Source: a virus
Taxonomy: Duplodnaviria > Heunggongvirae > Uroviricota > Caudoviricetes
Virus record (IMG/VR): IMGVR_UViG_3300035208_003871
Reading direction: 5' to 3' (one strand)
DNA length: 61,733 bases
Notes under the pieces: model-generated
What the model was told of the DNA's origin: nothing
Databases searched by the model: none
What the model saw: the letters and a program-made list of their open reading frames with translations, nothing else
Shown: positions 19,331 through 45,752 of the stretch, in pieces
Numbering within the stretch: position 1 is the stretch's first letter
How the letters are laid out: the number at the start of each line of letters is the position of its first letter
Program-made: the position numbers and the translations under genes

Positions 19331-19440
19331 ACAATAGGTTGGGTTGACAAGGGTTACTTCATAAATCCTGAAAATTTAAACGAGACTGACCTTTCTAAAC
19401 AATTGGTCTTTAACACCTGAGTCAAATGATCTCCTGTTGT
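19331..19440 (+). ncRNA. Y-RNA-like module U1 with Ser(UGA) anticodon-loop mimic
   Basis: ACAATAGG TTGGGTTGACAA GGG TTACTTC ... CCT GAGTC AAAT GATCT CCTGTTGT; internal TAAAT-CCTGAAA-ATTTA. Confidence 0.8.
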
Positions 19441-19502
19441 AAAATCAAGATCGGAAATTGCAAAGTATTGGCAGGGAGGAACTAGACTCCCAAAAATTCA
19501 AA

Positions 19503-19589
19503 GTGTCTATAGGAAAGTGGCTGAATCCGCTAGGCTAAGAACCTAGTACCGTTAGGGTAAACGCACCAGTTCGAATCTGGTTAGGCACA
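19503..19589 (+). tRNA. tRNA-Leu(AAG)
   Basis: GTGTCTA/TAGGCAC, CTAGG-CT AAG AA-CCTAG, long variable arm, TTCGAAT T-loop. Confidence 0.85.
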
Positions 19590-19591
19590 TC

Positions 19592-19734
19592 CCAAGCAGG
19601 TTGGGTTGTTGAGAGTTACTTCAATTGATTTGAAATCGATAGCCGGGAAAGGAGGGATGAAATTATAATGCCCGGATTTGTGACGAAATGTCATATTCCA
19701 CTCCAAAACTCAAAGCAATTGATCTCCTGTTTGG
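19592..19734 (+). ncRNA. Y-RNA-like module U2 with Ser(UGA) anticodon-loop mimic
   Basis: CCAAGCAGG TTGGGTTGTTGA GAG TTACTTC ... CTC AAAGC AATT GATCT CCTGTTTGG; internal ATTGA-TTTGAAA-TCGAT. Confidence 0.8.
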
Positions 19735-19754
19735 AAAGTTAAGTTCAGTTAAAA

Positions 19755-19910
19755 GTTCAGTTAGTGTAAAGGTATCATATTGGCATAAAAAGAAACTCTA
19801 ATCGACTGATCTCCCAATGTTCTTTGTGATGTTTTTTCATTGGGTTGGGTAGATGTGAGATACTTCATATACAGGGGCCGATGATGGTGGTTCGATTCCA
19901 CCACTGAACA
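19755..19910 (+). ncRNA. tRNA-like scaffold carrying permuted Y-like module U3 in place of the anticodon loop
   Basis: GTTCAGT/ACTGAAC, D arm, TTGGC/GCCGA, GGTGG TTCGATT CCACC; 92 nt insert 19785-19876 has the 3' motif strand before the 5' strand. Confidence 0.8.
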
Positions 19911-19912
19911 TT

Positions 19913-19977
19913 TGATAGGTTGGGTAGTAAAGGGTTACTTCAAGGTTTTAGTCCCGATACAGACTGATCTCCTATCA
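19913..19977 (+). ncRNA. Y-RNA-like module U4 (minimal)
   Basis: TGATAGG TTGGGTAGTAAA GGG TTACTTC ... CCC GATAC AGACT GATCT CCTATCA. Confidence 0.8.
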
Positions 19978-20093
19978 GTAAAGTTTCCCAGTATAGCCAT
20001 AGGAAAATCTCAAAAGGATAGTTAAGACCGATTCAATATAGAGATCATTTGCTTTATGCAAAGTGGAGTAGTAAAATACTCCATTTTCATAAT

Positions 20094-20164
20094 GGTAGTT
20101 TAGCATATTGGATATGTACCTGCCTGCAGAGCAGAGGAAGCAAGTTCGACTCTTGCAACTACCT
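20094..20164 (+). tRNA. tRNA-Cys(GCA)
   Basis: GGTAGTT/AACTACC, loop CT GCA GA, U73. Confidence 0.85.
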
Positions 20165-20165
20165 T

Positions 20166-20238
20166 GTGATTGTAGCGTAATGGTTTAGCGTAACTGACTG
20201 TGACTCAGTTGGATTGGGTTCGATTCCCAACTATCACA
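20166..20238 (+). tRNA. tRNA-His(GTG)
   Basis: ACTGA-CT GTG AC-TCAGT, TTGGG TTCGATT CCCAA. Confidence 0.85.
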
Positions 20239-20370
20239 TTTTATGAAGTTTAAAAGTGGTGTAAAATACAACGTCGATTCCAGAGACTGGAAATATGGAT
20301 TTGCAAAAGATTCAAGAGTAGATCTCCATCCAACTAAAATGATCGCGGATACAGGTCGCTATACTCATAG

Positions 20371-20676
20371 ATGGGAAAGATATACGGACACTATATGGTT
20401 GAAAAAATGACAATTTATGAAAATGTATCAGTTTGGATAGATAAACAGGGATTTATCAAAACTCCTGATGGAAAACTTGGTCAGTACACTTACAACATCG
20501 ATCATCTCAATCCAAAAGATAAAGATATGAAAGGTCTTCAGTTTGTCGCAGATAATAACAAAGCGACAATTTATTTAGTTCGTGAATTCATTGCTATAGA
20601 TGCCGATTACCGAGAAGAGCATCCTCGTAAAGTAGATCCGAAAGATTGGTATCTTCTGGAAATAAAACCTCAGTAA
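20371..20676 (+). CDS. Hypothetical protein
   Basis: 101 aa ORF between tRNAs; start uncertain. Confidence 0.6.
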   Translation: MGKIYGHYMVEKMTIYENVSVWIDKQGFIKTPDGKLGQYTYNIDHLNPKDKDMKGLQFVADNNKATIYLVREFIAIDADYREEHPRKVDPKDWYLLEIKPQ

Positions 20677-20685
20677 AATTTTTGA

Positions 20686-20757
20686 GCTCCAGTAGTGTAA
20701 AGGTAATCATCGGTGATTCTCAGTCATTGAATCTGGGTTCAATTCCCAGCTGGAGTA
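20686..20757 (+). tRNA. tRNA-Glu(CTC)
   Basis: GCTCCAG/CTGGAGT archaeal Glu-like acceptor, loop TT CTC AG. Confidence 0.85.
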
Positions 20758-20770
20758 TTTGTGATACATT

Positions 20771-21229
20771 ATGAAACTTTCAGAAGCATTAATCAAACGA
20801 GCAGATCTTCAGAAAAGATATGCTGAACTAAAGAATCGAATTTTGAATAATGTCCAAGTGCAAGAAGGAGACACACCATCCGAAGATCCCGAAGTGTTAA
20901 TTGAAGAAGCATGTAGTGTGTTGTTTGATCTCAAAATGTATATTCAGATGATTAACAAGACCAATTCACGAACAATTATGAATGATGGATCGACTATCAC
21001 AAATGCAATCGCAATGCGGGATGCTCTTAAGTTAAAGCATGAATTATATTCATCAATCGCAAGTTCAGCAACTATAACTCCACGATTCTCACGATCTGAG
21101 ATCAAAGCAACAAGTGTTATTGATGTAAATAAATATCGAACACTTGCAGATGATACCGCAAAATCCTTCAGATTTTTGGATACCGAAATCCAGACAATGA
21201 ATTGGAATACTGAATTAATCGAAAATTAA
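20771..21229 (+). CDS. DIP1984-like (DUF6847) helical protein
   Basis: MKLSEALIKRADLQKR...VQEGDTPSEDP...IQMINKTN...RDAL...IQTMNWNTEL follows the family pattern as I recall it. Confidence 0.75.
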   Translation: MKLSEALIKRADLQKRYAELKNRILNNVQVQEGDTPSEDPEVLIEEACSVLFDLKMYIQMINKTNSRTIMNDGSTITNAIAMRDALKLKHELYSSIASSATITPRFSRSEIKATSVIDVNKYRTLADDTAKSFRFLDTEIQTMNWNTELIEN

Positions 21230-21241
21230 CCAAAATTAAGT

Positions 21242-21431
21242 ACAAGTTTGGTAGTTTGTAACGTAAAGTGATTGCACACAAATATTACAAATGGATATAT
21301 ATGCGAACGAAGGAACCAAGTAGCAAATTTACAAATCAGTTCCATATTGTTACCTGTGTAAAGTGCATCAATTAATGTTATTACCGGTGCTTTAGTTATG
21401 TTACAAACGAGGGTGGGTAAGGGGAACTTGT
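21242..21431 (+). ncRNA. Structured RNA candidate directly 3' of the DIP1984-like gene
   Basis: Nested stems ACAAGTT/AACTTGT, GTTTGTAACGTAA/TTATGTTACAAAC, TGATTGCAC/GTGCATCA, GGAAC/GTTCC. Confidence 0.55.
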
Positions 21432-21433
21432 TA

Positions 21434-21514
21434 AGGAATGTGCCCAAGCTTGGTAAGGGGATCGGCTCAAACCCGATTGTGCAGACCTCAGGGGTTCAAA
21501 TCCCTTCATTCCTA
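21434..21514 (+). tRNA. tRNA-Leu(CAA)
   Basis: AGGAATG/CATTCCT, ATCGG-CT CAA AC-CCGAT, variable arm. Confidence 0.85.
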
Positions 21515-21676
21515 TAAATTGTGAAAATATGATAAGACGATGCATTGTGCAATATGTGAAGAAATGTCCAATTCATCATGAAAATGATGTTAGTTTAGCA
21601 GATTATTGTGCTGATTGCGGATATAACAAAGGTATAAAATCACATTACATTTATTGTTCTTTTGGAGATGAAATAG

Positions 21677-22000
21677 ATGATGTTTAACCACAATGAAATA
21701 TCAGAATATACACACGATGAGACAATGAAGAAGGTAATTCCTTATATTACTTCCGATGTTACAATTGTGAAATTAGAAGTACTTGATTTTCAGGTTAATA
21801 ATACTGCACATTCTATGTCAAAGTTCGGAATTCCTGTTGGTCAATATTTTTATCAGGAAATGGCAATGCACATAGATAATATAGTGTCCAATACTACAGG
21901 TCATATAATGGCGTACTACGGTGGAGATAGAATTCCATCAATTGAGTTATGGGATTACACAAATGTACCGATATGCACCTTTTATTTTGTGGTGGTTTAA
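21677..22000 (+). CDS. Hypothetical protein
   Basis: GGAG leader; abuts the next gene. Confidence 0.6.
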   Translation: MMFNHNEISEYTHDETMKKVIPYITSDVTIVKLEVLDFQVNNTAHSMSKFGIPVGQYFYQEMAMHIDNIVSNTTGHIMAYYGGDRIPSIELWDYTNVPICTFYFVVV

Positions 22001-22987
22001 ATGGTTAAAGTATTTTATCATAATGATCCGGACGGTTGGTGTTCGGCGTATTGGGTTCGTAAACACCTCGAAAGTGAAAAGATTCCATTTGAGGCATCAG
22101 ATTTCATCGAAATGAACTACGATAAATCTTTCCCATGGGACAAAATTAATCACATGGGTGAACAAGTTTTCATGGTTGACTTCTCACTCAATGATCCTGA
22201 AGATATGATCAAACTTTCTAAAATGTGTGATTTTACATGGATCGATCACCATAAAACTGCCATCGATAAAATGGGTGAATTTTGTAATAAATCAGGATGG
22301 GAAGAACCTAAAGGTATTCGTATTGATGGTGTTGCAGCCTGTGCTTTAACATGGGTTTATTTACATGGAATTTCATCTGGAAAGTTCACATTAAAAGATA
22401 TTACAACTGCGCATCCAATAAGAGGCGATGTTGTTACCAGTGAGTATATTACTGTTGATACTAATGAGATTGTAATTAGAAAATATACATGGGAATTTGC
22501 GCCATTATTCACGCAATACATCCACCTATGGGATACTTGGCAATGGAAAAATCATCCGGATGCAATGGAAATTAATGAGTTTATCACTGCGTTAAATGCA
22601 TCAAATACACACCCATTATCTATAAATTGGGACGCTCTTAATGAAAGTCAGGAAGTAATCTGTACACTTGTGCAGTCGGGATCTGATATGATTCGATTTC
22701 GTGATGGATATGCAAAAGGGTTGTGTGATTCTATAGGTAAAGTTATCGAATTTGAAGGGCATCGATGTTTTGTATGTAACATGGGACACTGTAATAGCGA
22801 GTGGTTTAAATCAGTAGATCCTTCAACCTATGATATCATGATGCCATTTTATTACAATGTACAAACAGAGCAGTTTTGCATCAGTCTCTACAGTGATAAA
22901 GTAGACGTTAGTAAAATAGCGGTTAAATACGGTGGAGGAGGACATTGCGGAGCTTCTGGCTTTCAATGTAGAAACTTACCTTTCTGA
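22001..22987 (+). CDS. DHH/DHHA1 phosphoesterase
   Basis: YHNDPDG, VDFS, WIDHH and GGGGHCGASGF motifs. Confidence 0.9.
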   Translation: MVKVFYHNDPDGWCSAYWVRKHLESEKIPFEASDFIEMNYDKSFPWDKINHMGEQVFMVDFSLNDPEDMIKLSKMCDFTWIDHHKTAIDKMGEFCNKSGWEEPKGIRIDGVAACALTWVYLHGISSGKFTLKDITTAHPIRGDVVTSEYITVDTNEIVIRKYTWEFAPLFTQYIHLWDTWQWKNHPDAMEINEFITALNASNTHPLSINWDALNESQEVICTLVQSGSDMIRFRDGYAKGLCDSIGKVIEFEGHRCFVCNMGHCNSEWFKSVDPSTYDIMMPFYYNVQTEQFCISLYSDKVDVSKIAVKYGGGGHCGASGFQCRNLPF

Positions 22988-23219
22988 AATAGAAATATTT
23001 TTACGGTAATTTAATAATGACACGTATAAATGTATGTCCGGAATGCAAAACTGAAGTTAAGGAACCATTTTATGTAAATGTTATACAAGATAAGCGTTTA
23101 CCTAATGATTTTCATTATTTTTATCAATGTCCGAAGTGTAAGCGAGTCTTTGTAGAAGTAAATTAGAATGTAAACCCCAAATTATTTATAATTTGGAAAA
23201 CAACAGTTAATGCACATTT

Positions 23220-23339
23220 GCCAGTTTAGCAGAGTAGGAATGCATCCGGCCTGTATTTCAGATGTTCACAAAAAGTGAACAGATAGTAAAAAGTGAACAG
23301 GATACCGGAAGATCGGGGGAGCATAACCCTCAACTGGCT
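23220..23339 (+). tRNA. tRNA-Thr(TGT) with canonical 37/38 BHB intron (23256-23303), C33
   Basis: TCCGG/CCGGA stem; BHB central helix CCTG/CAGG, 3 nt bulges, TTCA/TGAA intron helix; U73. Confidence 0.85.
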
Positions 23340-23340
23340 C

Positions 23341-23412
23341 TCTGCCTTGGTCTAGCAGCAAGGATGATTGACTTTCTATCAATCTGCGTGGGTGCAATTC
23401 CCGCAGGCAGAA
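23341..23412 (+). tRNA. tRNA-Glu(TTC)
   Basis: TCTGCCT/AGGCAGA, ATTGA-CT TTC TA-TCAAT, T-loop TGCAATT. Confidence 0.8.
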
Positions 23413-23435
23413 TAAACGATATTAAACGATAACTA

Positions 23436-23449
23436 TTTTAAGCCGAAGT
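23436..23449 (+). promoter_or_regulatory. TTTTAAGCCGAAGT promoter motif
   Basis: 28 nt upstream of ATG 23464. Confidence 0.55.
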
Positions 23450-23463
23450 GCGTATATAATTAT

Positions 23464-23664
23464 ATGTCACGACTTGATGCACGTATGCAGATTTTTGCTG
23501 ATAGATTAACTGATTCACTTGGTTTAAAGAAAGGAACTCTTATTAAAGATGAAGATATCCAAAAGATTGCAACTGCAACCATGGGTCAGCAGATAACGAT
23601 TAATAACAAAACGATTGCCATTGCACCGGTTATGATTTTTCAGGCAAACAAAATCATGGAATGA
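23464..23664 (+). CDS. Hypothetical protein
   Basis: Follows the promoter motif. Confidence 0.6.
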   Translation: MSRLDARMQIFADRLTDSLGLKKGTLIKDEDIQKIATATMGQQITINNKTIAIAPVMIFQANKIME

Positions 23665-23749
23665 AATAAAGAACATAAATTTACTAAGTAAATTTAATTA
23701 TACACTTTAAAATAATTTATATATTTATAAAATGAATGTATAAGTTAAC

Positions 23750-24067
23750 ATGTTTCAGTACATTAGATTATTTTTATTCTTACAGTTTCTTGATTTAGTT
23801 ACCACATATGCTGATATCACATATGTTATCGGCACATCTGAAGGAAATACATTATGGTCATATTTACTATCGTATATGCCAATTAATATGTACATTATGA
23901 TGATTATAGGTAAATTTGTAGGAATAGTTATGCTATTAACATGCCTTTATATACTAACTATAATCTCAACAAATAAGATTTACAAAACCCTGAATACAGT
24001 AATATTAGCAATGTGTACATTCGTAGTAATTAATAATATAGCCATATTACTCACATATTTCCAATAA
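23750..24067 (+). CDS. Three-TM membrane protein (DUF5658-like)
   Basis: LQFLDLVTT...EGN...K motif with hydrophobic helices. Confidence 0.6.
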   Translation: MFQYIRLFLFLQFLDLVTTYADITYVIGTSEGNTLWSYLLSYMPINMYIMMIIGKFVGIVMLLTCLYILTIISTNKIYKTLNTVILAMCTFVVINNIAILLTYFQ

Positions 24068-24098
24068 TTTTATATTTAATAACGATTCAACTATTATG

Positions 24099-24172
24099 GG
24101 GCGTTTAGCATAGCTGGTTAATGCACTCGGCTCATACCCGAGAGATCATCGGTTCGAACCCGGTATCGCCCA
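24099..24172 (+). tRNA. tRNA with CAT anticodon (Ile2-like or elongator Met)
   Basis: GGGCG acceptor start, CTCGG-CT CAT AC-CCGAG; body resembles archaeal Ile2. Confidence 0.8.
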
Positions 24173-24173
24173 T

Positions 24174-24262
24174 TCGCCTGTAGCCTATAGGACTAAGGCA
24201 CCTGACTTCTAAGTTTATACGAAGATATCAGGATGAGGCGGGTTCAATTCCCGTCAGGCGAG
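24174..24262 (+). tRNA. tRNA-Arg(TCT) with 15 nt BHB intron (24212-24226)
   Basis: CCTGA/TCAGG stem; central helix CTTC/GAAG with 3 nt bulges. Confidence 0.88.
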
Positions 24263-24264
24263 TA

Positions 24265-24633
24265 ATGCAACAGAAAATTACCGGCAATGTATTAATTGTT
24301 GCTGGACCTCGTAACTTTTTTAATCGCGAAATAATTATTGAGAATTTAATCAATGCAATCTGTGACATTAAACCCACCAAGATTATTACCGGAAATGCAA
24401 CCGGTGTAGATCAAATTACTGCCGAATATTGCCATAGTTTAACCGAAATAGAATTTGAAGTGTTTCCTGCAGATTGGGATAAATATGGTAGATCAGCAGG
24501 CCCTCGTAGAAACTGGACTATGGCACTTGCAGGAACTCACCTACTAGCCTTTACAAATGGATCACCCGGAACAAGTAATATGATTTATTTTGCAAAACGT
24601 CATGATTTGGAAATTATCTTTGTAGATATATAA
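24265..24633 (+). CDS. SLOG-superfamily protein (DUF2493/YspA-like)
   Basis: IVAGPRNF, ITGNATGVD, FPADWDKYGRSAGPRRN, AFTNGSPGTSNMI. Confidence 0.85.
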   Translation: MQQKITGNVLIVAGPRNFFNREIIIENLINAICDIKPTKIITGNATGVDQITAEYCHSLTEIEFEVFPADWDKYGRSAGPRRNWTMALAGTHLLAFTNGSPGTSNMIYFAKRHDLEIIFVDI

Positions 24634-24722
24634 AATAAATTTATATACTTTGCCCGAAAATCTCCATGAAAATTAACTTTTTTAATAATTAACAAATAAT
24701 AGTTAACAAACCTATTATATAG

Positions 24723-24736
24723 TTTTAAGCCGAAGT
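24723..24736 (+). promoter_or_regulatory. TTTTAAGCCGAAGT promoter motif
   Basis: 21 nt before ATG 24744; heads the ligase operon. Confidence 0.55.
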
Positions 24737-24743
24737 ATAATGA

Positions 24744-24902
24744 ATGGGAAGAACGTGGCCAGAAGAAGATAAGAAAACATTAAGTGATCTCTACTTAATA
24801 GATCGGCTATTTGCACCTGAAATTGCATTACGAATGGGTCGCGGTGTCGGAGCAGTTCGTATGAAAATTACAGCAATGAATTTGTCCGGAGGTGGATTAT
24901 GA
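24744..24902 (+). CDS. Small HTH/Myb-like protein (below the ORF track cutoff)
   Basis: MGRTWPEEDKKTL...EIALRMGRGVGAVRMK; stop overlaps the ligase start. Confidence 0.6.
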   Translation: MGRTWPEEDKKTLSDLYLIDRLFAPEIALRMGRGVGAVRMKITAMNLSGGGL

Positions 24903-25789
24903 TTAAAAAACCAATGTTGTCGGTAAATGCAGAATTAGATAAAATAAGATACCCAGTACTTGGCACTCCCAAAATCGATGGAATACGCTGTTTGACTACA
25001 GACTTGGGCGCGGTATCTCGAAATATGAAACCAATCCCAAATGCGCATGTTCGTAATATGTTAAATGATCTTCCGGTTGGTTTGGATGGAGAATTAATAG
25101 TTGATAACAATTTTCATCAAACTTCTTCCGGGATCATGAGCAGGGATGGTGAACCAAAATTCACTTACAAAGTATTTGATTATATCATCGACGGTGATAC
25201 AACAATGCCATATAACGAGCGTATGACCCATCTCTTTGAGTTTGCTATGGAAGTTGAACCAGATCCACATTTAAGTGGGTTCATTCAATGTCTTCTCCCA
25301 ATCGAAATACAGACACAGAGTGAATTGTTTGATTATGAAGGAGTGTGTCATGAACTCGGTTACGAGGGCTGTATGATTCGCAAAGTAGATTCTCCATATA
25401 AATCAGGAAGATCTAGTGTTAAGGAAGGATATTTGTTAAAAATAAAGAGGTTCGAAGATGCAGAAGCAGAAATCATTGGGTTCGAAGAGTTACAACGTAA
25501 TCAAAATGCGGCGAAGCGTGACGTGTTCGGCCACATTGACCGGTCAACTTGCAAGGACGGAATGGTTGCAGGACAAACAATGGGCGCGATTAGGGTGCGC
25601 GATTTAAAAACCGGAGTAGAATTTTCCATCGGATCAGGATTTACTGCATCAGATCGTGAAACAATATGGAGTCATCAGGATTTCTACATTGGCAAAGCCA
25701 TAAGTTATAAATTTCAACCCTGTGGCACTAAGGATGCACCACGATTTCCGATATTCAAAGGATTCCGACATCCCAATGACATATCGTAG
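24899..25789 (+). CDS. lig: Minimal ATP-dependent DNA ligase
   Basis: Motif I KIDGIR, LDGEL, VFD, EGCMIR, LLKIK, C-terminal OB fold with IGSGF and RFPIFKGFR. Confidence 0.9.
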   Translation: MIKKPMLSVNAELDKIRYPVLGTPKIDGIRCLTTDLGAVSRNMKPIPNAHVRNMLNDLPVGLDGELIVDNNFHQTSSGIMSRDGEPKFTYKVFDYIIDGDTTMPYNERMTHLFEFAMEVEPDPHLSGFIQCLLPIEIQTQSELFDYEGVCHELGYEGCMIRKVDSPYKSGRSSVKEGYLLKIKRFEDAEAEIIGFEELQRNQNAAKRDVFGHIDRSTCKDGMVAGQTMGAIRVRDLKTGVEFSIGSGFTASDRETIWSHQDFYIGKAISYKFQPCGTKDAPRFPIFKGFRHPNDIS

Positions 25790-26154
25790 AATTTATTCTC
25801 ACATGCGAGGATTGCATGTAGAAAAACATCACTCTCGTGTTTTTCGTGGTATATACAAGTGGATATTATTATCACGAAGGGTTGCACCAAAACTTGGATG
25901 TAAGTATGATGATATTGGAGAACGTGGTCCCGGACGTAATATTAGAAAATTGCGTCCGTGGCGGATGCAATAATCTATAACTTTATTAACTTTTAAGACG
26001 AAGTGTTAGTATGGAATCAGAAGAAAATATAGAATCTAAAATAGTAGAATTACGAGAATTGCTTCGTGTTCCCGGAACCACACCATGCACAGCACGTAAA
26101 ATCGAAGGTCAAATAGAAATTCTCGAATGGGTAATAAGTAATATTGGTGAATAA

Positions 26155-26772
26155 ATGACAAATCCAGATATTGTTGAAATTGTTGCCATTGTTGATAGTT
26201 CCGGATCTATGCAAAGTATCAAGGGTGCAGCTATTGCGGGATTCAATGCATTACTTTATGATCAACAGACATTAATGAATGCAGCAGATGCTATCTTTAC
26301 ATTAGTATTCTTCAATTCTGTGCATTATATGGTCTATGATGCAGTTGATATTGGGGAAGTGAAACCGCTAACCCCAAACACTTACGAATGCGATGGTAAT
26401 ACTGCCATGTATGATGCAATCGGAGACACTATAACCCGCGTTCATAATAAATTCAAAGACATGCCAGAGGACGAAATACCCGGTACAATTTTATTTGTAA
26501 TTATTACCGATGGTGGTGAAAATGATTCTCACAATTACAAGGGAAGTTTACTAAAAGAAATGATAACGCGACTCAAAAGAGAAGATAACTGGATGTTCAG
26601 TTATCTTTCATCTACTAACAATCCCTATGATGAAGCAGAACAAATAGGTATTCCTAATGAAGATGTTCTAAAGCTAAGAACTGGAGCACAGGGTATGCAG
26701 GAAGGTTACGTAAAAATCAGTACTGCATACTCAAATTACCGGACTGGAAAATCCAAGAAAGTAAACCTTTAA
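26155..26772 (+). CDS. vWA domain protein (TerY-like)
   Basis: VDSSGSM MIDAS, TAMYDAIG, IITDGGEN. Confidence 0.85.
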   Translation: MTNPDIVEIVAIVDSSGSMQSIKGAAIAGFNALLYDQQTLMNAADAIFTLVFFNSVHYMVYDAVDIGEVKPLTPNTYECDGNTAMYDAIGDTITRVHNKFKDMPEDEIPGTILFVIITDGGENDSHNYKGSLLKEMITRLKREDNWMFSYLSSTNNPYDEAEQIGIPNEDVLKLRTGAQGMQEGYVKISTAYSNYRTGKSKKVNL

Positions 26773-26816
26773 AATTATTAGACAACCTTTAAATTTTTGT
26801 AAATCTAATTAAATTT

Positions 26817-26890
26817 ACCCGTATAGTGTATCGGATTAATCATTAGGGATCGCGAATCCCTAGAGCGGGGTTCAACTCCCCGTACGGGTG
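26817..26890 (+). tRNA. tRNA-Arg(GCG), C33
   Basis: ACCCGTA/TACGGGT, AGGGA-TC GCG AA-TCCCT, CGGGG TTCAACT CCCCG. Confidence 0.8.
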
Positions 26891-27171
26891 TCTTTTATGA
26901 TTAGGAAATTGTATTTTCTTTTATTTGGTAGGAATCGGCATCGATGGGTGAAATACTATTACAGATATAAAGACCCAATTCGGAATGGATGGGAGTTGTG
27001 TGAATTATGAATGTTAAACGGCGCGCGTGCTGGCATCTTATTGGTTATTGGTGTGCTCGTTGCAATCGAAAAATCGGGTGCAAGTATTTTAGTGGAACAC
27101 ATCCAAGTCCTAATAAATTCCACACTTGGTAAATAATAAATAATAAATGATAAACAAATACATTTATCTAT

Positions 27172-27185
27172 TTTTAAGCCGAAGT
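27172..27185 (+). promoter_or_regulatory. TTTTAAGCCGAAGT promoter motif
   Basis: Upstream of ORF 27191; 28 nt before ATG 27200. Confidence 0.55.
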
Positions 27186-27190
27186 ATAAT

Positions 27191-27997
27191 GTGATAAATA
27201 TGGTTGATATTGTAGCAGGATGTAAACGAGGATATAATTGGTTCAAGGGAATTCTCAAAGCAGTTTGGGAGTTGTTAAAAAAATTATTTCCCAGACCACG
27301 CAAGAGCAGTGGCAAAAATAGTGGAAAAAATAGTGGAAAAAGTCAGAAAAAGCAAAATTGTGGAGATCAACAAGATGATTCGGGACAAAACGACTCAGGA
27401 GAGGATGGAGATGGCAATCAGGAATGTGACGGAAGCCAGAGCGGAGGCAATAATGGTGACGAGAGCAATGGATCTTGTGACAGTGCTAATAAAGATGCAA
27501 CAGAGGAATCTGAGAATAATGCCGATGTATCCGGCACTTCAACCGAGCGCAGCGATCAAATCAGATCTGCGCAAGATACTGCGCGAGATAAGTTTCACAG
27601 ACGAGTAGAAGAGGCTGAAGAACGAGGAGAATTCGATACCGTAGATACTGAAGAATATGGTGCCATTGAAGATCCCAATTCCAATGAAGAAGCATTTGAA
27701 GAGTCTGAAGAATTAATTGAAGAATCTGATGAATTAGGTAAATCAGGTGAATCAGGAAGTGGTGGCAGCGATGAATTCTATGAACCAACCATAACCGGTA
27801 AAAAACTGAGTATGGTGGAAGCAGCATTAGCAGAAGCATTTACTAATGAGGAAACATCTGATGAGGAAACCGTAATTACAAACGGGACAAGCAGCGGAAG
27901 TGAAGTTGAATTGATTGACACTTCTGAATTACAGAATGCGCGCAGACTCACCGTTATTCCCAATCAAAGACGAGAAACTCGTGCTGTCTACGATTAA
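27191..27997 (+). CDS. Acidic low-complexity protein with amphipathic N-terminus
   Basis: WFKGILKAVWELLKKLF followed by a D/E/S/G/N-rich region; SGKN repeats. Confidence 0.7.
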   Translation: MINMVDIVAGCKRGYNWFKGILKAVWELLKKLFPRPRKSSGKNSGKNSGKSQKKQNCGDQQDDSGQNDSGEDGDGNQECDGSQSGGNNGDESNGSCDSANKDATEESENNADVSGTSTERSDQIRSAQDTARDKFHRRVEEAEERGEFDTVDTEEYGAIEDPNSNEEAFEESEELIEESDELGKSGESGSGGSDEFYEPTITGKKLSMVEAALAEAFTNEETSDEETVITNGTSSGSEVELIDTSELQNARRLTVIPNQRRETRAVYD

Positions 27998-27999
27998 AA

Positions 28000-28203
28000 T
28001 TGATAACCATGGCACAAATTAAAACTTACCCAACTTTAATGGCAGTTATTTCTGCTAATCATTATCAAATATGTAAATGGTATAGATTTCTTCGTTCTCC
28101 CGAAACATCCGAAGAAGTAGATATTAACAATGAAATTTGTGAAAGACTTAAAAAATTTGGTGGTTTTACTCCGGAGATATCTAAATCGATTGGATGGAAA
28201 TAA
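28000..28203 (+). CDS. Conserved phage-type hypothetical protein
   Basis: QICKWYRFLRSP...GGFTPEISKSIGW. Confidence 0.65.
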   Translation: MITMAQIKTYPTLMAVISANHYQICKWYRFLRSPETSEEVDINNEICERLKKFGGFTPEISKSIGWK

Positions 28204-28264
28204 AATACAACCAAATAACGAAAATTTTTAATATTAGGATATCAAACATTATTACGTAACATCT

Positions 28265-28336
28265 GCTTCATTGGGCCAAAAGGTAAGCTTGCTGGTTTGG
28301 GACCAGTAGAAGACGGAGCGTTACCGTCATGAAGCA
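28265..28336 (+). tRNA. tRNA-Pro(TGG), atypical T-loop
   Basis: GCTTCAT/ATGAAGC, GCTGG-TT TGG GA-CCAGT, GACGG AGCGTTA CCGTC. Confidence 0.8.
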
Positions 28337-28337
28337 T

Positions 28338-28606
28338 CCCCACTTCCGAGGTTCTATTGCAGAACGACATGTGGTTTATCGGGTGAAACGGATCGGCCCG
28401 GTACGCTGGATAGCAAGTGTGACACGCAGGTTACCTTCGCCGTAGGAGTGCTATCAGAAGGTGTATACCGTAGCAGTGGCATCGTAAGCCCAAAGACTTG
28501 CTGCATAGGTCGAAGAGTCAGGCCCTTGACGATATACAAAAGTAAATCAACAGAAACTGCCAGCATCCGAGTGTTATTTGAATTTGGGTTCAATTTAACA
28601 CTTTTT
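28338..28606 (+). ncRNA. Large structured, pseudoknotted ncRNA candidate
   Basis: GC-rich non-coding tract with many helices, two H-type pseudoknots and a terminal AGTGTTA/TAACACT hairpin plus T run. Confidence 0.55.
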
Positions 28607-28765
28607 ATTGGTGAAATTATGAGTGATGAATACGAAGAAGATAAATCAAAAGTCAAGAATGAAATGACTGGTAGAATTGAAGATCGTGCTACTGGTAGTG
28701 ACTATGCTGATGGTGGCGCGATGTACAGTAAAGTCTATAAGAAGAAAGATTAACTTCTTCATTTT

Positions 28766-28839
28766 GGAACTGTAGCAAAATTGGGAAGTGCGTACGTTTG
28801 AAGGGCGTAATATTATGAGTTCGAATCTCATCAGTTCCG
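28766..28839 (+). tRNA. tRNA-Phe(GAA)
   Basis: GGAACTG/CAGTTCC, TACGT-TT GAA GG-GCGTA, ATGAG TTCGAAT CTCAT. Confidence 0.78.
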
Positions 28840-28841
28840 TC

Positions 28842-28954
28842 ACTGAAAGGTTGGGTTGATAAGGGTTACTTCGGTATTTATGGTTCGAATCCATGACTCT
28901 CTGATCAGGGAGTATAAAAGACAAAACACCTGAGTCGAAAGATCTCCTTTCGGT
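28842..28954 (+). ncRNA. Y-RNA-like module U5 with YrlA-type T arm and loop-closed acceptor stem
   Basis: Motif strands as in U1; inside TATGG TTCGAAT CCATG then ACTCTCT-GATC-AGGGAGT (7 bp). Confidence 0.82.
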
Positions 28955-28973
28955 TTAAGTTTTTAAAAAAGTT

Positions 28974-29309
28974 TTAATTGATAATGAACATTCCACCATC
29001 GTCATCTTCGTTCATTAAATTCATTAAATTCAGAATTATTTCTTCATATTCTAAATTATTAGAATAACATCCCAAAAAGTACGATAAGTACATCTTTTGC
29101 TGTATAGTTAAATCCTCGATGTATGCTATTTGTGACATTAACTCTAATGGATCAACAACATCAACCGTATGGTATCTTTTACACAAAAATTTACCTAACA
29201 TTACCATTAACTTATTAAAATATACTTCATCTATATCGTAAGGCGTCCCTTTAATTGTAAAAATCTTCGGGGGCTTCTCTTTCTCCATCACTTTGATCAC
29301 CGTCCTCAT
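28974..29309 (-). CDS. Hypothetical protein
   Basis: 111 aa minus-strand ORF. Confidence 0.6.
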   Translation of the reverse strand: MRTVIKVMEKEKPPKIFTIKGTPYDIDEVYFNKLMVMLGKFLCKRYHTVDVVDPLELMSQIAYIEDLTIQQKMYLSYFLGCYSNNLEYEEIILNLMNLMNEDDDGGMFIIN

Positions 29310-29694
29310 TCAATTTTTTATAATGTTTGACCACCGTATCCATATTCCATCGTTTACTTTCTTTATCAATCAACGTGCATTTAACTGAGTCATCTCCAAC
29401 AGTTTGCCACTCAGTACATTTCCATGACATGAAACAAATTAATTGAAAATCATTCATTAATTCCGGAATAAAACCACATAACTCGCTATTTAATATATAC
29501 GGGGAATCCAATAACTTTGAAGTTTCTATTACCTGTCCATAACTTTGCCAGTAAGGGCAACGCATCTCATTTATGCAGCCGTTAACGCATCTAATCGATT
29601 TCGAATGCCCTACGCTATATGGACACACAACATTCATAAACTGCATTGTTTCTTTATCATATATAACATATATAATATTATAAGCTTGAAACAT
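29251..29694 (-). CDS. Hypothetical protein with Cys motifs
   Basis: Minus-strand ORF; start uncertain. Confidence 0.55.
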   Translation of the reverse strand: MFQAYNIIYVIYDKETMQFMNVVCPYSVGHSKSIRCVNGCINEMRCPYWQSYGQVIETSKLLDSPYILNSELCGFIPELMNDFQLICFMSWKCTEWQTVGDDSVKCTLIDKESKRWNMDTVVKHYKKLNEDGDQSDGEREAPEDFYN

Positions 29695-29751
29695 TGCATT
29701 TATAAATTCATAACAGAAAGAATTATATGGTAAAGTAACAAATGTTTAACT

Positions 29752-30348
29752 ATGGTCAATTCAAAGTTGATTGAAATGGTTTGTATCATTGACAAATCAG
29801 GATCGATGAGTCCATTTAAAGGAGATTCTATTGGAAGTTTTAATACGTTTCTTAACGAGCAAAAGAATCTTAAATCTGATATAAACGCACTGTTTACAAT
29901 GGTGCAATTTAATACTGGTTATGATATTGTTCATAATGGTATACCAATCCAAAATGTTCCAGAATTAAATGATGCAACATATTGCTGCGTTGGTTGTACC
30001 GCGTTATATGATGCTGTTGGAAAGGCGATTGATACTATTGGAAACCGATTATCAAACACACACGAAGATCAGCGTCCTTCAAAAGTTATTGTTACTATTT
30101 TAACTGATGGTGAAGAGAACTCATCAATGGAATATAATAGTGAAAAGATTAAAAAGATGATTAAAACCCAAACCGAAGACTTTCAATGGGAATTCATTTA
30201 TTTATCCGCAAGTCCAAATGCATTCAGGGATTCTGCTGCAATGGGGATAAGTGCCCAGCAAACACAAACCGTAAATCTTAGTTCCACAAGAGGAATAAAA
30301 GACAGTTACGCAACAATTAGTTCTTGCTATTCATCATATCGAAATTAG
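29752..30348 (+). CDS. vWA domain protein (TerY-like), paralogue of 26155..26772
   Basis: IDKSGSM, TALYDAVG, ILTDGEENSS. Confidence 0.85.
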   Translation: MVNSKLIEMVCIIDKSGSMSPFKGDSIGSFNTFLNEQKNLKSDINALFTMVQFNTGYDIVHNGIPIQNVPELNDATYCCVGCTALYDAVGKAIDTIGNRLSNTHEDQRPSKVIVTILTDGEENSSMEYNSEKIKKMIKTQTEDFQWEFIYLSASPNAFRDSAAMGISAQQTQTVNLSSTRGIKDSYATISSCYSSYRN

Positions 30349-30458
30349 AATAGATTTATATATTAATATAGTTAAGTTATAACTGGAGCACGTAGTGTGC
30401 CCAAAGTAATGATAATCAGCGAGTCAGACCTTTTGAGGCTGATGACCTGCTCAACTTT

Positions 30459-30546
30459 GAGAATGTGGCTGAGCTTGGCAGAAAGCACCAGACTTAAGAT
30501 CTGGCACCAAAGGGTAAACGCACCGGTTCAAGTCCGGTCATTCTCA
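30459..30546 (+). tRNA. tRNA-Leu(TAA)
   Basis: GAGAATG/CATTCTC, CCAGA-CT TAA GA-TCTGG, variable arm. Confidence 0.88.
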
Positions 30547-30608
30547 TCAATAATGACCATTTTGTTGACGCCAACAAATTGATCTAAAATCCATTAGTTT
30601 TAAAAACT

Positions 30609-30682: not shown

Positions 30683-30685
30683 TTT

Positions 30686-30758: not shown

Positions 30759-30762
30759 TTTT

Positions 30763-42949: not shown

Positions 42950-43027
42950 TACTTAACGTACCCCACAGTAACAAGACTCGCAAGAACAGGAAACCTATTT
43001 CTTCCTGTTTTTTGTTTTGTTCAGACT
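42950..43027 (+). ncRNA. Hairpin small-RNA unit, copy 3 of 5
   Basis: TACTTAA, 13 nt, AACAAGAC/GTTTTGTT, AAGAACAGGAA/TTCCTGTTTTT, GTTCAGACT overlapping the stop of the convergent gene. Confidence 0.6.
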
Positions 43028-43842
43028 GATTTGTCGGTGATGCGCAGTTTGGTATAATATTGATGGTAGTCGGGTGTGCGATCTGGGATTTCGGCCAAAC
43101 TTCTCCCGCGAACAATTAAGTCATCTCTGATTTTGCAAAGCATCTCATATCTAATTTGTATACCAAATTTGAGTCGTATAAATCCGTCATTTTGCTCTTC
43201 GAGTTTTTCTAATAAATCTAACTGAGATTGCGATGCTGTATCACGCTGATTGCACCCTGCTTCTTTTGCAGTTTTTCCAAATATAACTACATTTAACATA
43301 TCCGCTTCTGTAGCATATACCAGCCATTTCATTTCGTCCGGAACATCATATAACAAATGGTCTTTAATCGCGTCAGTCATACCCTTATACTTTAACTTAG
43401 TTGCCTCGCGCCGCGCCCACCATTGCGGAACTTTATAATAATCTAAATGTTTTCCAAATGTCTTGATAACATATCTTTGAAAATCTGAAACTTTTTCACC
43501 CACGGTTGGATCTTCCATGCGAGATGGTGTTATCTTCATTAAGTACATCGTCATACCATCACGAGTTAAACACTTTAGTTTAACTTTACCACTCTTTGAA
43601 GTGGTTGACGTAACGTATACCACTGTAGAAAACTCACTAAATTCATTTTTGCCTCTTGAAAGGATTTTAGATTGGGTATCTTTATTAATTCCAAGTGCTT
43701 TTGAGATATCTGCTACCGGGATAACCCATCCCATATCAGCGGTGCATATGAACCGCACTGGTATATTAAAGACTTCTCCTTCAATCATAAGTGGATCACC
43801 CGTTCTCAATGAGTGATCTTCTGCTCGTGTTATATCGAACAT
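43021..43842 (-). CDS. BRO/Rha-type antirepressor-like DNA-binding protein
   Basis: VADISKALGI N-domain; TDAIKD...EADMLNVVIFG...NQRD C-domain shared with 45784..46503. Confidence 0.7.
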   Translation of the reverse strand: MFDITRAEDHSLRTGDPLMIEGEVFNIPVRFICTADMGWVIPVADISKALGINKDTQSKILSRGKNEFSEFSTVVYVTSTTSKSGKVKLKCLTRDGMTMYLMKITPSRMEDPTVGEKVSDFQRYVIKTFGKHLDYYKVPQWWARREATKLKYKGMTDAIKDHLLYDVPDEMKWLVYATEADMLNVVIFGKTAKEAGCNQRDTASQSQLDLLEKLEEQNDGFIRLKFGIQIRYEMLCKIRDDLIVRGRSLAEIPDRTPDYHQYYTKLRITDKSV

Positions 43843-43911
43843 ATATACATGTAGTTTTATTAGAATAAATGTTCACTTATAGTCCATTACTTAAAATTTA
43901 CAAATGCGAAA

Positions 43912-43920
43912 CTTTTAAAT
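43912..43920 (+). promoter_or_regulatory. TATA-like box upstream of the Y-like RNA/tRNA/Ro60 locus
   Basis: TTTTAAATA about 30 nt before U6. Confidence 0.5.
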
Positions 43921-43941
43921 ACTTGCGCGTTGACCTATTGT

Positions 43942-44023
43942 ATGTCAAAACAGGTTGGGCAGCAAAGGGATACTTCAATGAAAATGAAACAAAGCCCGAT
44001 GCGACTTGATCTCCTGTAGACAT
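43942..44023 (+). ncRNA. Y-RNA-like module U6 with Phe(GAA)-like 7 nt loop
   Basis: ACAGG TTGGGCAGCAAA GGG ATACTTC ... CCC GATGC GACTT GATCT CCTGT; TTCA-ATGAAAA-TGAA. Confidence 0.82.
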
Positions 44024-44030
44024 TAATATT

Positions 44031-44167
44031 GGGATGGTAGCTTAGCCCGGTAGAGCGCATAAATTTCTCTAATCGCTTGACCTCTAATAAGCAATTATTA
44101 GCTGGGTAGATGTGAGTTACTTCGATTTGTAATCGTGAGATCGAGAGTTCGAATCTCTCCCGTCCCG
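44031..44167 (+). tRNA. tRNA-Thr(TGT) interrupted at 28/29 by permuted Y-like module U7 (44060-44122)
   Basis: Removing 63 nt restores CACGA-TT TGT AA-TCGTG in a perfect cloverleaf; insert = 3' motif strand, GCAA tetraloop, 5' motif strand. Confidence 0.85.
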
Positions 44168-44181
44168 TAAATTAAGTCTAC

Positions 44182-44189
44182 TTTTTTTT
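44182..44189 (+). terminator. Oligo-T archaeal terminator candidate
   Basis: T8 tract right after the tRNA and before the Ro60 leader. Confidence 0.5.
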
Positions 44190-44225
44190 GGAGATCTGCC
44201 CGCGACCTGCAGTCAGGAGTGCAGC

Positions 44226-45752
44226 ATGTCAACATTTAACAAGAAGGTTTCTACCTCAAAAAAGTTAGAATCGCACCCAAGTGCAACAAAGAACCACGAG
44301 GACGCACTTGCATTTAAGATGTCACCAAAGCTCGATCTGTACACTAGAGTAGCAACATGTCTCTATGGTCAGGACAAATTTTACGTAACCGGAAAGCAGG
44401 CAGACTCCGAACTTCAGTCAGTTCTGTCAACGGTAATCGCAGAAGATCCAAAGTTTGTTCTTGATCTTGCAAAGTATACCCGCAATAAATTGTACCTCAG
44501 GTCGGTTCCACAGGTGTTACTTGCAGAAGTTTTCAATCAGTCACCCGGAACTGTTGGTGCATACAAGTATGTTCCTGAAGTAGTGAAACGTGCAGATGAA
44601 ATCACCGAGGTGCTCGCTTACCAGTTAAACAGAAATGCTGCAACAGGGACACGTGGTGATGGTCAGAAGAAGATTCCCAAGTCACTACAGAAGGGACTTC
44701 GACTCGCAATGCAGAACTTCGGAGAGTATCACTACGCTAAGTACAACAAAGATGGCGAAGTTACCTTCAAGGACGCAATGACACTCGTGCGACCAAAGCC
44801 AAAAGATTCTGCACAGGCAGCAATCTTCGAAAAACTCGTAAATGGCGAGTCGCTTCCAATCCCGGATACATGGGAGATGATCACCACAATAAAGGGATCA
44901 AACAAAGCAAGTTGGGAAGAGGCCGCAGAAAAGACTCCGTACATGGCTACAATTAGGAATTTAAACAATTTCCTTCGGAATGATATCGGGAACCTCGATG
45001 TTGTAATTGATCGTCTTACCAATGAGGCACAGGTTCTCAAATCAAAACAGCTTCCGTTTAGGTTCTACTCTGCATATCGCGAGATCCAGAACAATGCCAA
45101 GGATAGCAGAACAAATAAGGTTCTTGATGCAATCGACACTGCTATGGAAATCTCAATAAAAAATGTTCCAAATGCAGGTGGAAAAACCGCTGTGCTTGTG
45201 GATCTTTCAGGGTCAATGCAAAGCAAAGTATCTGGAAAATCAACCGTTAGCATGAGAGAAATCGCATCTGTCTTCGGTGCAATATCTTCAAAGGTCTTCG
45301 ATGACTGCGTATTCTACGGATTCGGTGACACTTCCAAGGTAATTCCGCTTTCGAAGAGAAGTTCAATCATCGATAATGTCGAAAAAATCAACCAGACAAA
45401 TGTTGGATGTTCAACAAATGCGCATCTACCAGTCCTTGACATGATAAAAAATGGCACCGATGTAGATCGCATAATCCTGTTCAGTGATATGCAGTGCTAT
45501 AACAGCGGATATAGTGGAACATCCAGCGGATATTCATATGGATACGATGTAACACCAGCATTCTTCGACTACCGCAAGAAAGTAAATCAGAACACAAAAC
45601 TGTATTCCATCGACCTCACCGGATATGGAACTGTCAAGTGGCCCGAAAACACTCGTGGTATCTACACAATCAGTGGATGGAGCAACAGCATCTTCAACTT
45701 CATCGATGCAGTAGAAAAGGGTGAGAAGGATATCCTTTCCCTCATCAATTAA
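44226..45752 (+). CDS. rsr: Ro60/TROVE-domain RNA-binding protein with C-terminal vWA
   Basis: LYLRSVP, KRADEITE, KYNKDG...KDAMTLVRPKP, PDTWE, YMATIRNL, QLPFRFYSAY, VDLSGSM, ILFSDMQ. Confidence 0.93.
   Translation: MSTFNKKVSTSKKLESHPSATKNHEDALAFKMSPKLDLYTRVATCLYGQDKFYVTGKQADSELQSVLSTVIAEDPKFVLDLAKYTRNKLYLRSVPQVLLAEVFNQSPGTVGAYKYVPEVVKRADEITEVLAYQLNRNAATGTRGDGQKKIPKSLQKGLRLAMQNFGEYHYAKYNKDGEVTFKDAMTLVRPKPKDSAQAAIFEKLVNGESLPIPDTWEMITTIKGSNKASWEEAAEKTPYMATIRNLNNFLRNDIGNLDVVIDRLTNEAQVLKSKQLPFRFYSAYREIQNNAKDSRTNKVLDAIDTAMEISIKNVPNAGGKTAVLVDLSGSMQSKVSGKSTVSMREIASVFGAISSKVFDDCVFYGFGDTSKVIPLSKRSSIIDNVEKINQTNVGCSTNAHLPVLDMIKNGTDVDRIILFSDMQCYNSGYSGTSSGYSYGYDVTPAFFDYRKKVNQNTKLYSIDLTGYGTVKWPENTRGIYTISGWSNSIFNFIDAVEKGEKDILSLIN

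Follow-up and report, generated by a model that had tools for sequence, protein, structure and literature searches.

A Ro60 orthologue and a family of Y-RNA-like modules among the tRNA genes of a probable archaeal virus

Particles of Ro60 and Y RNAs are known from animals, bacteria and bacteriophages. The IMG/VR virus record IMGVR_UViG_3300035208_003871, a stretch of DNA of 61,733 nucleotides (nt) that was analysed at its full length and is called the window here, carries a gene for a TROVE-domain protein and seven copies of a structured RNA module (U1 to U7), some of them placed among tRNA genes. We consider it probable that this element encodes a Ro60 orthologue together with seven Y-RNA-like partner RNAs that share a protein-binding handle. 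The handle is repeated, its helices covary, it is linked to TROVE genes in other genomes and it is homologous to the handle of bacterial Y RNAs. A first-pass annotation of this DNA had proposed one Ro60 and a set of Y RNAs with a constant base and variable tops; covariation, TROVE linkage and kinship with YrlA favour this arrangement, in which Ro60 would bind the base. The window locus and its relatives extend the Ro60/Y RNA system to probable archaeal viruses.

A Ro60 gene and seven copies of one RNA handle

The seven copies reported by the first-pass annotation were all recovered. Searching the window with the 5'-strand motif TGGGYWG-N4-GRG-WTACTTC returned seven matches of TGGGYWGNNNNGRGWTACTTC without a mismatch, all on the plus strand, at positions 19340, 19602, 19846, 19921, 28852, 43956 and 44103. 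The number expected by chance was 0.05, and seven matches were reached in none of 100 shuffles. Direct reading and a pairing script identified the proposed 3' partner strand (CYY-N2-NNN-...GAUCU-CC-stem) in each copy. The mid helices read as described before (GAC/GTC, GTT/AGC, GAT/ATC, GTA/TAC, GAT/GTC, GCA/TGC and GAT/ATC), as did the upper helices (GGG/CCT, GAG/CTC or GGG/CCC), and the outer stems pair in seven of seven copies according to the script, although their sequences are all different. The handle begins on the outside with an outer stem of variable sequence. Inward of this stem follow an asymmetric internal loop that is conserved (5' UUGGGYWG, 3' GAUCU), a 3-bp helix, a small loop, a 3–4-bp helix and the sequence WUACUUC. 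U1, U2, U4, U5 and U6 have the usual order of 5' strand, top and 3' strand, whereas U3 and U7 have the permuted order of 3' strand, loop and 5' strand within tRNA-shaped RNAs. The modules and their immediate neighbours are listed below; bit scores of modules refer to R1, a covariance model built from eight short members of the family.

19236–19317, plus strand: tRNA-Leu(UAG) (ARAGORN; Rfam tRNA, 52.2 bits); U1 begins 13 nt past its 3' end
19331–19439, plus strand: U1, stand-alone Y-like RNA (48.4 bits, E 1e-10; folded), with outer stem CAAUAGG/CCUGUUG, handle and a variable top of ~55 nt
19503–19589, plus strand: tRNA-Leu(AAG); U2 starts 1–4 nt later
19594–19732, plus strand: U2, stand-alone Y-like RNA with a multi-hairpin top of ~85 nt (45.4 bits; fold z = -2.9)
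19755–19910, plus strand: U3, tRNA-shaped body with a permuted handle replacing the anticodon loop (motif at 19846)
19913–19977, plus strand: U4, minimal 65-nt Y-like RNA, 2 nt after U3 (65.6 bits, E 2e-15)
28765–28841, plus strand: tRNA-Phe(GAA); U5 begins 2 nt later
28844–28952, plus strand: U5, Y-like RNA (43.8 bits; folded; no match to RF02553)
43908–43921, plus strand: B recognition element (BRE)/TATA-like promoter box GCGAAACTTTTAAATA, ~30 nt upstream of U6, conserved in related loci
43948–44019, plus strand: U6, short stand-alone Y-like RNA, the first RNA of the TROVE locus (77 bits, E 1.5e-18)
44031–44168, plus strand: U7, cloverleaf tRNA-Thr(UGU)-like gene with a permuted 63-nt handle between nt 28 and 29; all helices pair
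44182–44189, plus strand: T8 run, as read from the sequence; it separates the RNAs from the TROVE gene and may be an archaeal terminator
44226–45752, plus strand: Ro60 orthologue with TROVE and Ro60-type vWA domains, 508 amino acids (Pfam; full-length match to the Ro60 of phage phiLo)

The open reading frame (ORF) at 44226–45752 had been called a full-length TROVE-vWA gene, and this description holds: it matches TROVE, the domain of the HEAT-repeat ring, at E 8e-25 and vWA_Ro60 at E 2.4e-12, and its scores for PF05731 (88.3 bits, cut-off 23) and PF25045 (47.5 bits, cut-off 27.7) place it in the Ro60 family. Residues 19–505 align to the Ro60 of Thermus phage phiLo (PDB 9KOP/9L5Y, E 2e-32), the closest solved homologue, and Xenopus, human and Deinococcus Ro60 are likewise matched. 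Upstream of TROVE on its strand, U6 and U7 stop 207 and 58 nt short of the gene, respectively, and so lie within the distance of ~4 kb from the Ro60 gene that is used to define YrlA; the pair stands behind the TATA-like box reported earlier.

Between this box and the first Y RNA, we noticed an element, (GA)CCTATWGTATG(TC), at 43922–43947 in the window, 1908–1922 in L008, 2148–2162 in L009 and 5812–5832 in L095 (L numbers denote the loci compared in this work). It is conserved in the window, its relatives and Halogranum tailed virus 1 (HGTV-1), and it may be an initiator or an operator.

Covariation across copies and relatives

Covariation of the pairings, first proposed from the window copies, was borne out in a wider set of sequences. 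In a MAFFT alignment of eight short members from six genomes (A1), RNAalifold recovered the outer stem, the asymmetric loop and, further in, helices of 3 and 3–4 bp separated by a small loop, with compensatory changes in 8 of the 12 pairs. A test on 33 members pointed in the same direction: standard pairs occupied 94.7% of cells, compared with 71.6% after shuffling and 43–51% when slid by 1–3 columns, and 90 doubly changed (compensatory) cells were counted, against 24 expected. Within the window, R1 matched exactly the five non-permuted copies at 44–77 bits, and nothing else.

The variant of the conserved loop goes with the genome. It is GGG in the window (7/7), L007, L008 and L009 and GCG in L010 and L012 (3/3 each), while six of the L014 copies read GCG and one reads GTG. 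Since the short and the chimeric types (suffixed a and c, respectively) have orthologues in both variant groups, at least two to three paralogues changed together. One loop variant per genome is expected if a single protein reads all copies, a pattern that we regard as suggestive, given the few independent lineages.

Relation to known Y RNAs

YrlA is distinguished by GNCGAAN0-1G on the 5' strand and by YUAY at about nt 22–25 (PMC4201824), within which the UA kink is conserved (10.1101/312249). The former maps to UGGGUWG in the window, to UGCGUAG, UGCGAAG or UGCGCAG in its relatives and to GUCGUAG or GCCGUAG in Bacteroidota; among the relatives, the literal CGAA (GCGAAG) is found in L010a only. 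In the place of YUAY, WUAC follows right after the upper helix in all seven window copies and occupies nt 21–24 in U6, compared with nt 22–25 in Salmonella YrlA. The conserved loop lies on the 5' strand, which is where Ro60 contacts Y RNA.

In long R1 matches from Bacteroidota (L049 5869–6001, L037 5279–5411), the two handle strands enclose a T arm, then a closed acceptor-like hairpin and finally a D arm, which is the published YrlA architecture (PMC4201824). The YrlA model RF02553 matches the same bacterial RNAs (L037 5297–5410, L049 5882–5988), with E values from 2e-8 to 1e-3 and scores that never reach its gathering score of 69. Together with the mapping of the signatures, these finds suggest that the window handle is of the YrlA kind. 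The comparison with Rfam that had been proposed thus gave a divided answer: neither the YrlA nor the Y_RNA model matched the window copies, whereas the bacterial RNAs found with R1 are also matched by RF02553. Judged by sequence, the window modules appear to carry the Ro60-binding module of the YrlA class, though they are not members of it by RF02553.

YrlA and YrlB occur with Rsr in Salmonella, Mycobacterium smegmatis, many other bacteria and 22 phages (PMC4201824; 10.1101/312249; RF02553). Like the window modules, they are encoded beside TROVE on the same strand, often in multiple copies, and YrlA shares with them a terminal stem whose 5' strand has a conserved loop and then leads to YUAY, as well as tRNA-like parts in the top. 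The differences lie in the loop, which is UUGGGYWG in the window instead of GNCGAA, in the tops and in the setting, with five window copies in tRNA arrays and a probably archaeal host. Most window tops lack the YrlA core of T arm, closed acceptor and D arm. U1, U2, U4 and U6 have no tRNA-like core, and the top of U5 has a T arm, AUGGUUCGAAUCCAU, then a closed hairpin as in YrlA, and no clear D arm. U3 and U7 contain a full tRNA body in 5'-to-3' order, outside the YrlA core order; with their open acceptor stem and loop-closed handle, they are a circular permutation of YrlA.

The phiLo Ro60 binds two upstream Y-like stem-bulge-stem RNAs through a CGAA bulge, as seen by electrophoretic mobility shift assay and cryogenic electron microscopy (PMC12135203; PDB 9KOP, 9L5Y). 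Single changes in this CGAA cost 3–4-fold in affinity, and the proposed partner of phiLo Ro60 is host PNPase (PMC12135203). As in the window, the phiLo RNAs lie directly 5' of the Ro60 gene; unlike the window, phiLo has only two RNAs (Yrl1/Yrl2), both adjacent to the gene, with the literal CGAA, no tRNA fusion and a bacterial host. Metazoan Y RNAs (RF00019), which are partners of Ro60 as the window modules are predicted to be, resemble these modules in having a distorted but conserved helix in the terminal stem and a loop module that varies; their conserved sequence is GGUCCGA/CUUGAC, compared with UUGGGUWG/GAUCU in the window. The CTTGAC of U7, initially taken as an echo of the metazoan stem, is not supported as such, occurring in one copy of seven and without an Rfam Y_RNA match.

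A Ro60 accompanied by several Y RNAs is already known in phages, namely mycobacteriophages, phage G and phiLo. Ro60 with Y RNAs is in print for mycobacteriophages, phage G and CcrColossus, and for phiLo with binding and structure. TROVE genes, though not partner RNAs, have been noted in jumbo phages, Asgard ‘Nidhogg’ viruses and Borgs. What is new here is the probable archaeal-virus setting, the divergent loop, the seven copies across tRNA arrays and the unpermuted tRNA fusions. As the first-pass annotation had supposed, a literature search found no paper on Y RNAs in archaeal viruses, nor did it find one describing normally ordered tRNA-handle chimeras.

Identity with an already described non-Y RNA family had been raised as a counter-possibility, and no Rfam ribozyme or riboswitch match was found on the modules. 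Sub-threshold Rfam matches to the Na+ riboswitch and McaS were attributed to chance. We also considered whether the loop might be a kink-turn or C/D box and the tRNA-adjacent copies a hammerhead or hepatitis delta virus-like ribozyme; both readings were dropped, the defining sequences being absent and Rfam giving no match.

Linkage of the handle to TROVE in other genomes

Co-occurrence with TROVE, a check that had been proposed, was found in many bacteria and in seven TROVE-bearing contigs from metagenomes, some related to the window and others further removed. L007–L010 and L012, whose TROVE proteins are 46–75% identical to that of the window, share the order PolB, promoter, short Y RNA, (middle Y RNA), tRNA chimera and TROVE, and contain orthologues of U6. 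L014 (TROVE 42–43% identical) has an unrelated neighbourhood with ~25 tRNAs, a CCA-adding enzyme, TROVE and PTH2, and six to seven modules are found around its TROVE gene. In L102 and L103 (TROVE likewise 42–43% identical), two modules each lie immediately upstream of TROVE; the L102 protein is labelled Aenigmatarchaeota by NCBI. A locus on a Patescibacteria chromosome (L015, TROVE 37% identical) has two modules directly 5' of TROVE. No module was found with R1 in L013, another contig at 42–43% TROVE identity.

In bacteria, R1 retrieved 53 matches from 80 TROVE loci of species genomes, 51 of them on the TROVE strand and mostly right behind the gene. Five whole bacterial genomes (1.4–7.2 Mb) yielded eight matches at E<=0.1, all within the TROVE locus, one genome being without a match. 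TROVE is the sole gene common to the PolB-type loci, L014, L102, L103 and the handle loci of Patescibacteria and Bacteroidota. Weak handle matches were additionally detected beside TROVE in Bacillus phage G and a crAss-like Bacteroides phage, and nothing was detected in mycobacteriophage Breeniome by R1 or by a second model, R2. Six matches from a motif scan of IMG/VR were discarded as chance, all of them lying within coding sequence, without the 3' strand and without TROVE.

Some of these loci have further peculiarities. In Bacteroides phage PhiCrAssBcn24 (L098), the 880 nt right after TROVE (5419–6299) have no annotated genes and contain three weak handle matches (E 0.016–0.024). In Chryseobacterium TROVE loci, including L044, L052, L076 and L092, the gene is followed by three to five YrlA-type RNAs in tandem; several of these loci have a T-arm half ending in ...CCACCA, which gives a CCA-like tract in the closed acceptor-like loop.

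The layout of the halovirus HGTV-1

The best match to the window Ro60 in the phage database comes from the haloarchaeal virus HGTV-1 (KC292026), with 32.5% identity; its TROVE gene is HGTV1_129. By inspection, four sites on the TROVE/tRNA strand of HGTV-1 have the same design as the window modules. Site 1, which lies with site 2 in the region 70440–70650, consists of a promoter and an RNA of 65 nt that folds as stem, loop and stem (z = -2.5) and has AUACUUC at its end. Adjoining it, site 2 is the gene annotated as ‘tRNA Asp (gtc) + Intron’ (HGTV1_136), which we read as a tRNA that has a permuted handle at 28/29 and the loop AUCUGGA. Site 3, in the region 67600–67720, is a promoter followed by a Y-like RNA directly upstream of TROVE. 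Site 4 (L099 45701–45785, minus strand) is an unannotated 85-nt gap between tRNA-Leu(UAG) and tRNA-Leu(GAG) that folds (z = -3.4) to a Y-like handle ending in AUACUUC, in the same place as U1 in the window. Compared with the window modules, those of HGTV-1 are GC-rich, their mid and upper helices are fused into one 8–9-bp helix, and their loop is nearer to GNCGA.

The HGTV-1 modules were detected by neither R1 nor R2, and the link to the window therefore relies on inspection, context and a structural descriptor. In a loose form, this descriptor was uninformative (44 matches, 20 expected); a tighter form gave 11 matches where 3.0 were expected, the four sites among them. That HGTV-1 carries the same layout as the window is, in our judgement, moderately supported. 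Elements ending in GTTACTTCGG that were noted in a halovirus agree with the Ro60/Y-like reading, and we do not count them as independent evidence. A 2026 paper on HGTV-1 mentions one tRNA gene with an intron and nothing further on the chimera. As HGTV-1 is in culture and shares the layout by inspection, the production of the RNAs, their splicing, Ro60 binding and the tethered partners are questions open to bench work.

Fusions of the handle to tRNA-like bodies

At least four kinds of junction link the same handle to tRNA-like bodies: the handle follows a tRNA, interrupts the anticodon stem, or replaces either the anticodon loop or the acceptor stem. The insert in the anticodon stem of U7 (44060–44122) is closed by GCAA. 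Without it, U7 is a perfect cloverleaf with the acceptor stem GGGAUGG/CCGUCCC, a D arm, the anticodon stem CACGA/UCGUG, the loop UUUGUAA and a T arm. The 28/29 insertion is also present in L007, L008, L009, L010 and L012, where the acceptor (7/7), D stem (4/4), T stem (5/5) and both inner handle helices (3/3) are fully paired, and all seven chimeras of the U7 type have a 7-nt loop whose second nucleotide is U and whose sixth is a purine. The body of U3 has the acceptor stem GUUCAGU/ACUGAAC and a T arm, and ARAGORN takes this RNA for a tRNA and places an insert of 85 nt at 36/37; its design, with the handle replacing the anticodon loop, is shared by L014 (5600–5739). In a third fusion design, found in L010b (9688–9800) and L012b (5689–5800), the handle occupies the position of the acceptor stem, and D-like, anticodon-like and T arms lie downstream of it.

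The chimeric order acceptor 5'–D–(3' handle–loop–5' handle)–WUAC–hairpin–T–acceptor 3' is a circular permutation of YrlA, in which the order is 5' handle–YUAY–V hairpin–T–closed acceptor–D–3' handle. The normally ordered tRNA-plus-handle is thus the missing counterpart of the circularly permuted YrlA and bears on the published idea of a tRNA origin of YrlA. Permuted tRNAs have been discussed alongside Y RNAs (10.1101/312249).

The handles of U7, U3 and their relatives could also be intron-like inserts, excised by the archaeal splicing endonuclease or another nuclease, with RtcB rejoining the exons. Such excision would yield a working tRNA (tRNA-Thr(UGU) from U7) and a free or circular Y RNA, which refines the Ro60/Y RNA explanation rather than opposing it; we hold it to be possible but doubtful. 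Removal of 44060–44122 from U7 would leave the perfect cloverleaf with a 7-nt loop, U33 and A37, and the constant loop pattern of all seven elements of this type fits a tRNA. A tRNA-Thr is absent among the 28 other tRNAs of the window, the true 15-nt 37/38 intron in its tRNA-Arg(UCU) indicates that splicing is available in the host, and the HGTV-1 chimera adjoins RtcB and is annotated in GenBank as a tRNA with an intron. Against excision, no bulge-helix-bulge, with two 3-nt bulges around a 4-bp helix, could be drawn by hand at the 28/29 junction of U7, ARAGORN reporting inserts only, and the WUACUUC end is kept in the stand-alone copies and so is not a splice-site feature. The topology of U7 and U3, moreover, is that of YrlA including its V hairpin, circularly permuted.

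The closest pair of chimeras also speaks against a decoding role. Outside the loop, L010c (9829–9961) and L012c (5830–5959) differ at 9 of ~124 positions (~93% identical), whereas 6 of 9 loop columns differ. Their anticodon-like loops are UAUUUGGAA and UUGCAGA, respectively (UUG vs GCA), while acceptor, T arm and discriminator are shared, which is unlike a decoding tRNA. The Ro60 proteins of L010 and L012 are 84% identical. Brute-force deletion with ARAGORN was too permissive for a definition of splice sites. With introns allowed, the program joined the halves of neighbouring YrlA copies in bacterial loci.

Archaeal tRNA genes offer partial parallels to the chimeras. The tRNA-Trp intron of Haloferax houses a C/D-box RNA, and circularly permuted tRNA genes are known. 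In both these cases and the chimeras, a second small RNA lies inside a tRNA gene or a permutation links the tRNA and its mimic; unlike archaeal tRNA introns, the chimeras allow no bulge-helix-bulge to be drawn at the 28/29 junction. A broader and still less likely proposal is that in archaeal tailed viruses Y RNA production is built into tRNA genes, the handles being released as 3' trailers and as excised (maybe RtcB-circularised) RNAs that leave a functional tRNA. A normally ordered tRNA with a handle would then be ancestral to bacterial YrlA, which would derive from it by circular permutation, and the anticodon-like loops, which change fast, would act as baits or decoys for tRNA-targeting host factors.

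Proposed role of the modules and alternatives

Transcription of the modules, their processing, their binding by Ro60 and their function are what we infer from the patterns described above. U6 and U7 would be transcribed from their own BRE/TATA promoter. Modules placed tightly behind tRNA genes are most simply explained by co-transcription with the tRNA array and release by tRNA end-processing nucleases. As U1, U2 and U5 lie 2–13 nt behind tRNAs and U4 lies 2 nt behind U3, the 5' ends of these four RNAs may be cut from tRNA-array transcripts by RNase Z, the tRNA 3'-end nuclease. Ro60 would dock on the handle. The tops vary from simple hairpins through a T arm plus closed stem to an entire tRNA body that has an anticodon-like loop; they could connect the Ro60 ring with enzymes or further RNAs, or control entry to the ring. 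The tethered partners are most likely tRNA-handling factors. To our knowledge, PNPase is generally absent from archaea.

Some observations weigh against this explanation. U1–U5 are on the same strand as TROVE and 15–25 kb away from it, beyond the ~4 kb used in defining YrlA. The window loop is GGGU(A/U), not CGAA. RF02553 (YrlA) and RF00019 (Y_RNA) gave no match at E<=10 on 19200–20100, 28740–29000 and 43880–44230; RF02553 probably misses the window copies because it is dominated by the permuted tRNA core, which is absent or otherwise ordered there. The 33-member alignment (A3) was fitted to the model, and pairing is thereby favoured, but the slid controls argue against a pairing artefact, and the MAFFT alignment, which is independent, agrees with them. 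Finally, four wastewater runs labelled RNA-Seq and flagged ‘probably DNA’ gave few low-depth contigs. One contig of 201 nt (43828–44028) covers the promoter and U6 and, since it includes the promoter, is not a discrete U6 transcript.

The handle might instead be read by another factor, for example a nuclease involved in processing or an enzyme of tRNA modification or repair. In that case, handle and TROVE would be associated through a common pathway and not through direct binding. The five copies that lie among tRNA genes, remote from TROVE, would be in keeping with such a reader, as would a window loop that differs from the CGAA important for phiLo Ro60. We consider this unlikely, given that no gene other than TROVE is common to all handle-bearing loci, that genome-wide bacterial matches fall at TROVE only and that the conserved loop occupies, on the 5' strand, the Ro60 contact site of Y RNA. 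A cis-acting leader or attenuator of the TROVE mRNA formed by U6 and U7, with the other copies as decayed duplicates or a mobile repeat, is highly improbable: U6 and U7 do lie between promoter and TROVE on the same strand, with the T8 run ahead of the gene, but the distant copies retain every helix via compensatory changes (44–66 bits), several of them begin 2–13 nt after tRNA genes, the bacterial modules are mostly downstream of TROVE, and no terminal repeats or target duplications were seen at the modules.

Host and other features of the window

Several features agree with the archaeal setting assumed in the first-pass annotation, and the host of the window virus is probably an archaeon. The tRNA-Arg(UCU) at 24173–24263 contains a 15-nt intron at the canonical 37/38 site (ARAGORN, introns allowed), which requires a splicing endonuclease of archaeal or eukaryal type. 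The tRNA-Met at 32164–32239 has A1:U72 as its first pair, the initiator signature of archaea and eukarya. BRE/TATA boxes lie ~30 nt upstream of several start codons, as they do upstream of U6, and the nearest TROVE of the phage database is that of HGTV-1. With default settings, ARAGORN had read 24173–24263 as a tRNA-Pyl(CUA) suppressor, a reading that was dropped once introns were allowed; stop-codon recoding therefore has no support here, and the gene serves as a marker of an archaeal host.

Ordinary tRNA genes number 28 (19236–33964) and cover all amino acids except Thr and Pro. The sole Thr(UGU) anticodon of the window is in the U7 chimera (44031–44168). Between the tRNA clusters, an ORF of 198 amino acids (29752–30348) encodes a small stand-alone vWA domain with a weak Pfam VWA match (E 4e-4). 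Among the other genes, PolB, NrdD, thymidylate synthase, methylases and a ligase are virus-like. In L014, which is also virus-like, a DUF3800-X RNA was matched by Rfam above threshold (54 bits) inside the tRNA array (1318–1387).

Relatives of the window were not found by a protein-based search of viral_contigs, and a search of the phage database with the window DNA gave no match. The window DNA is present in landfill and groundwater metagenomes, some of which may be its source, and a search of metagenome_contigs retrieved an identical copy of the window only.

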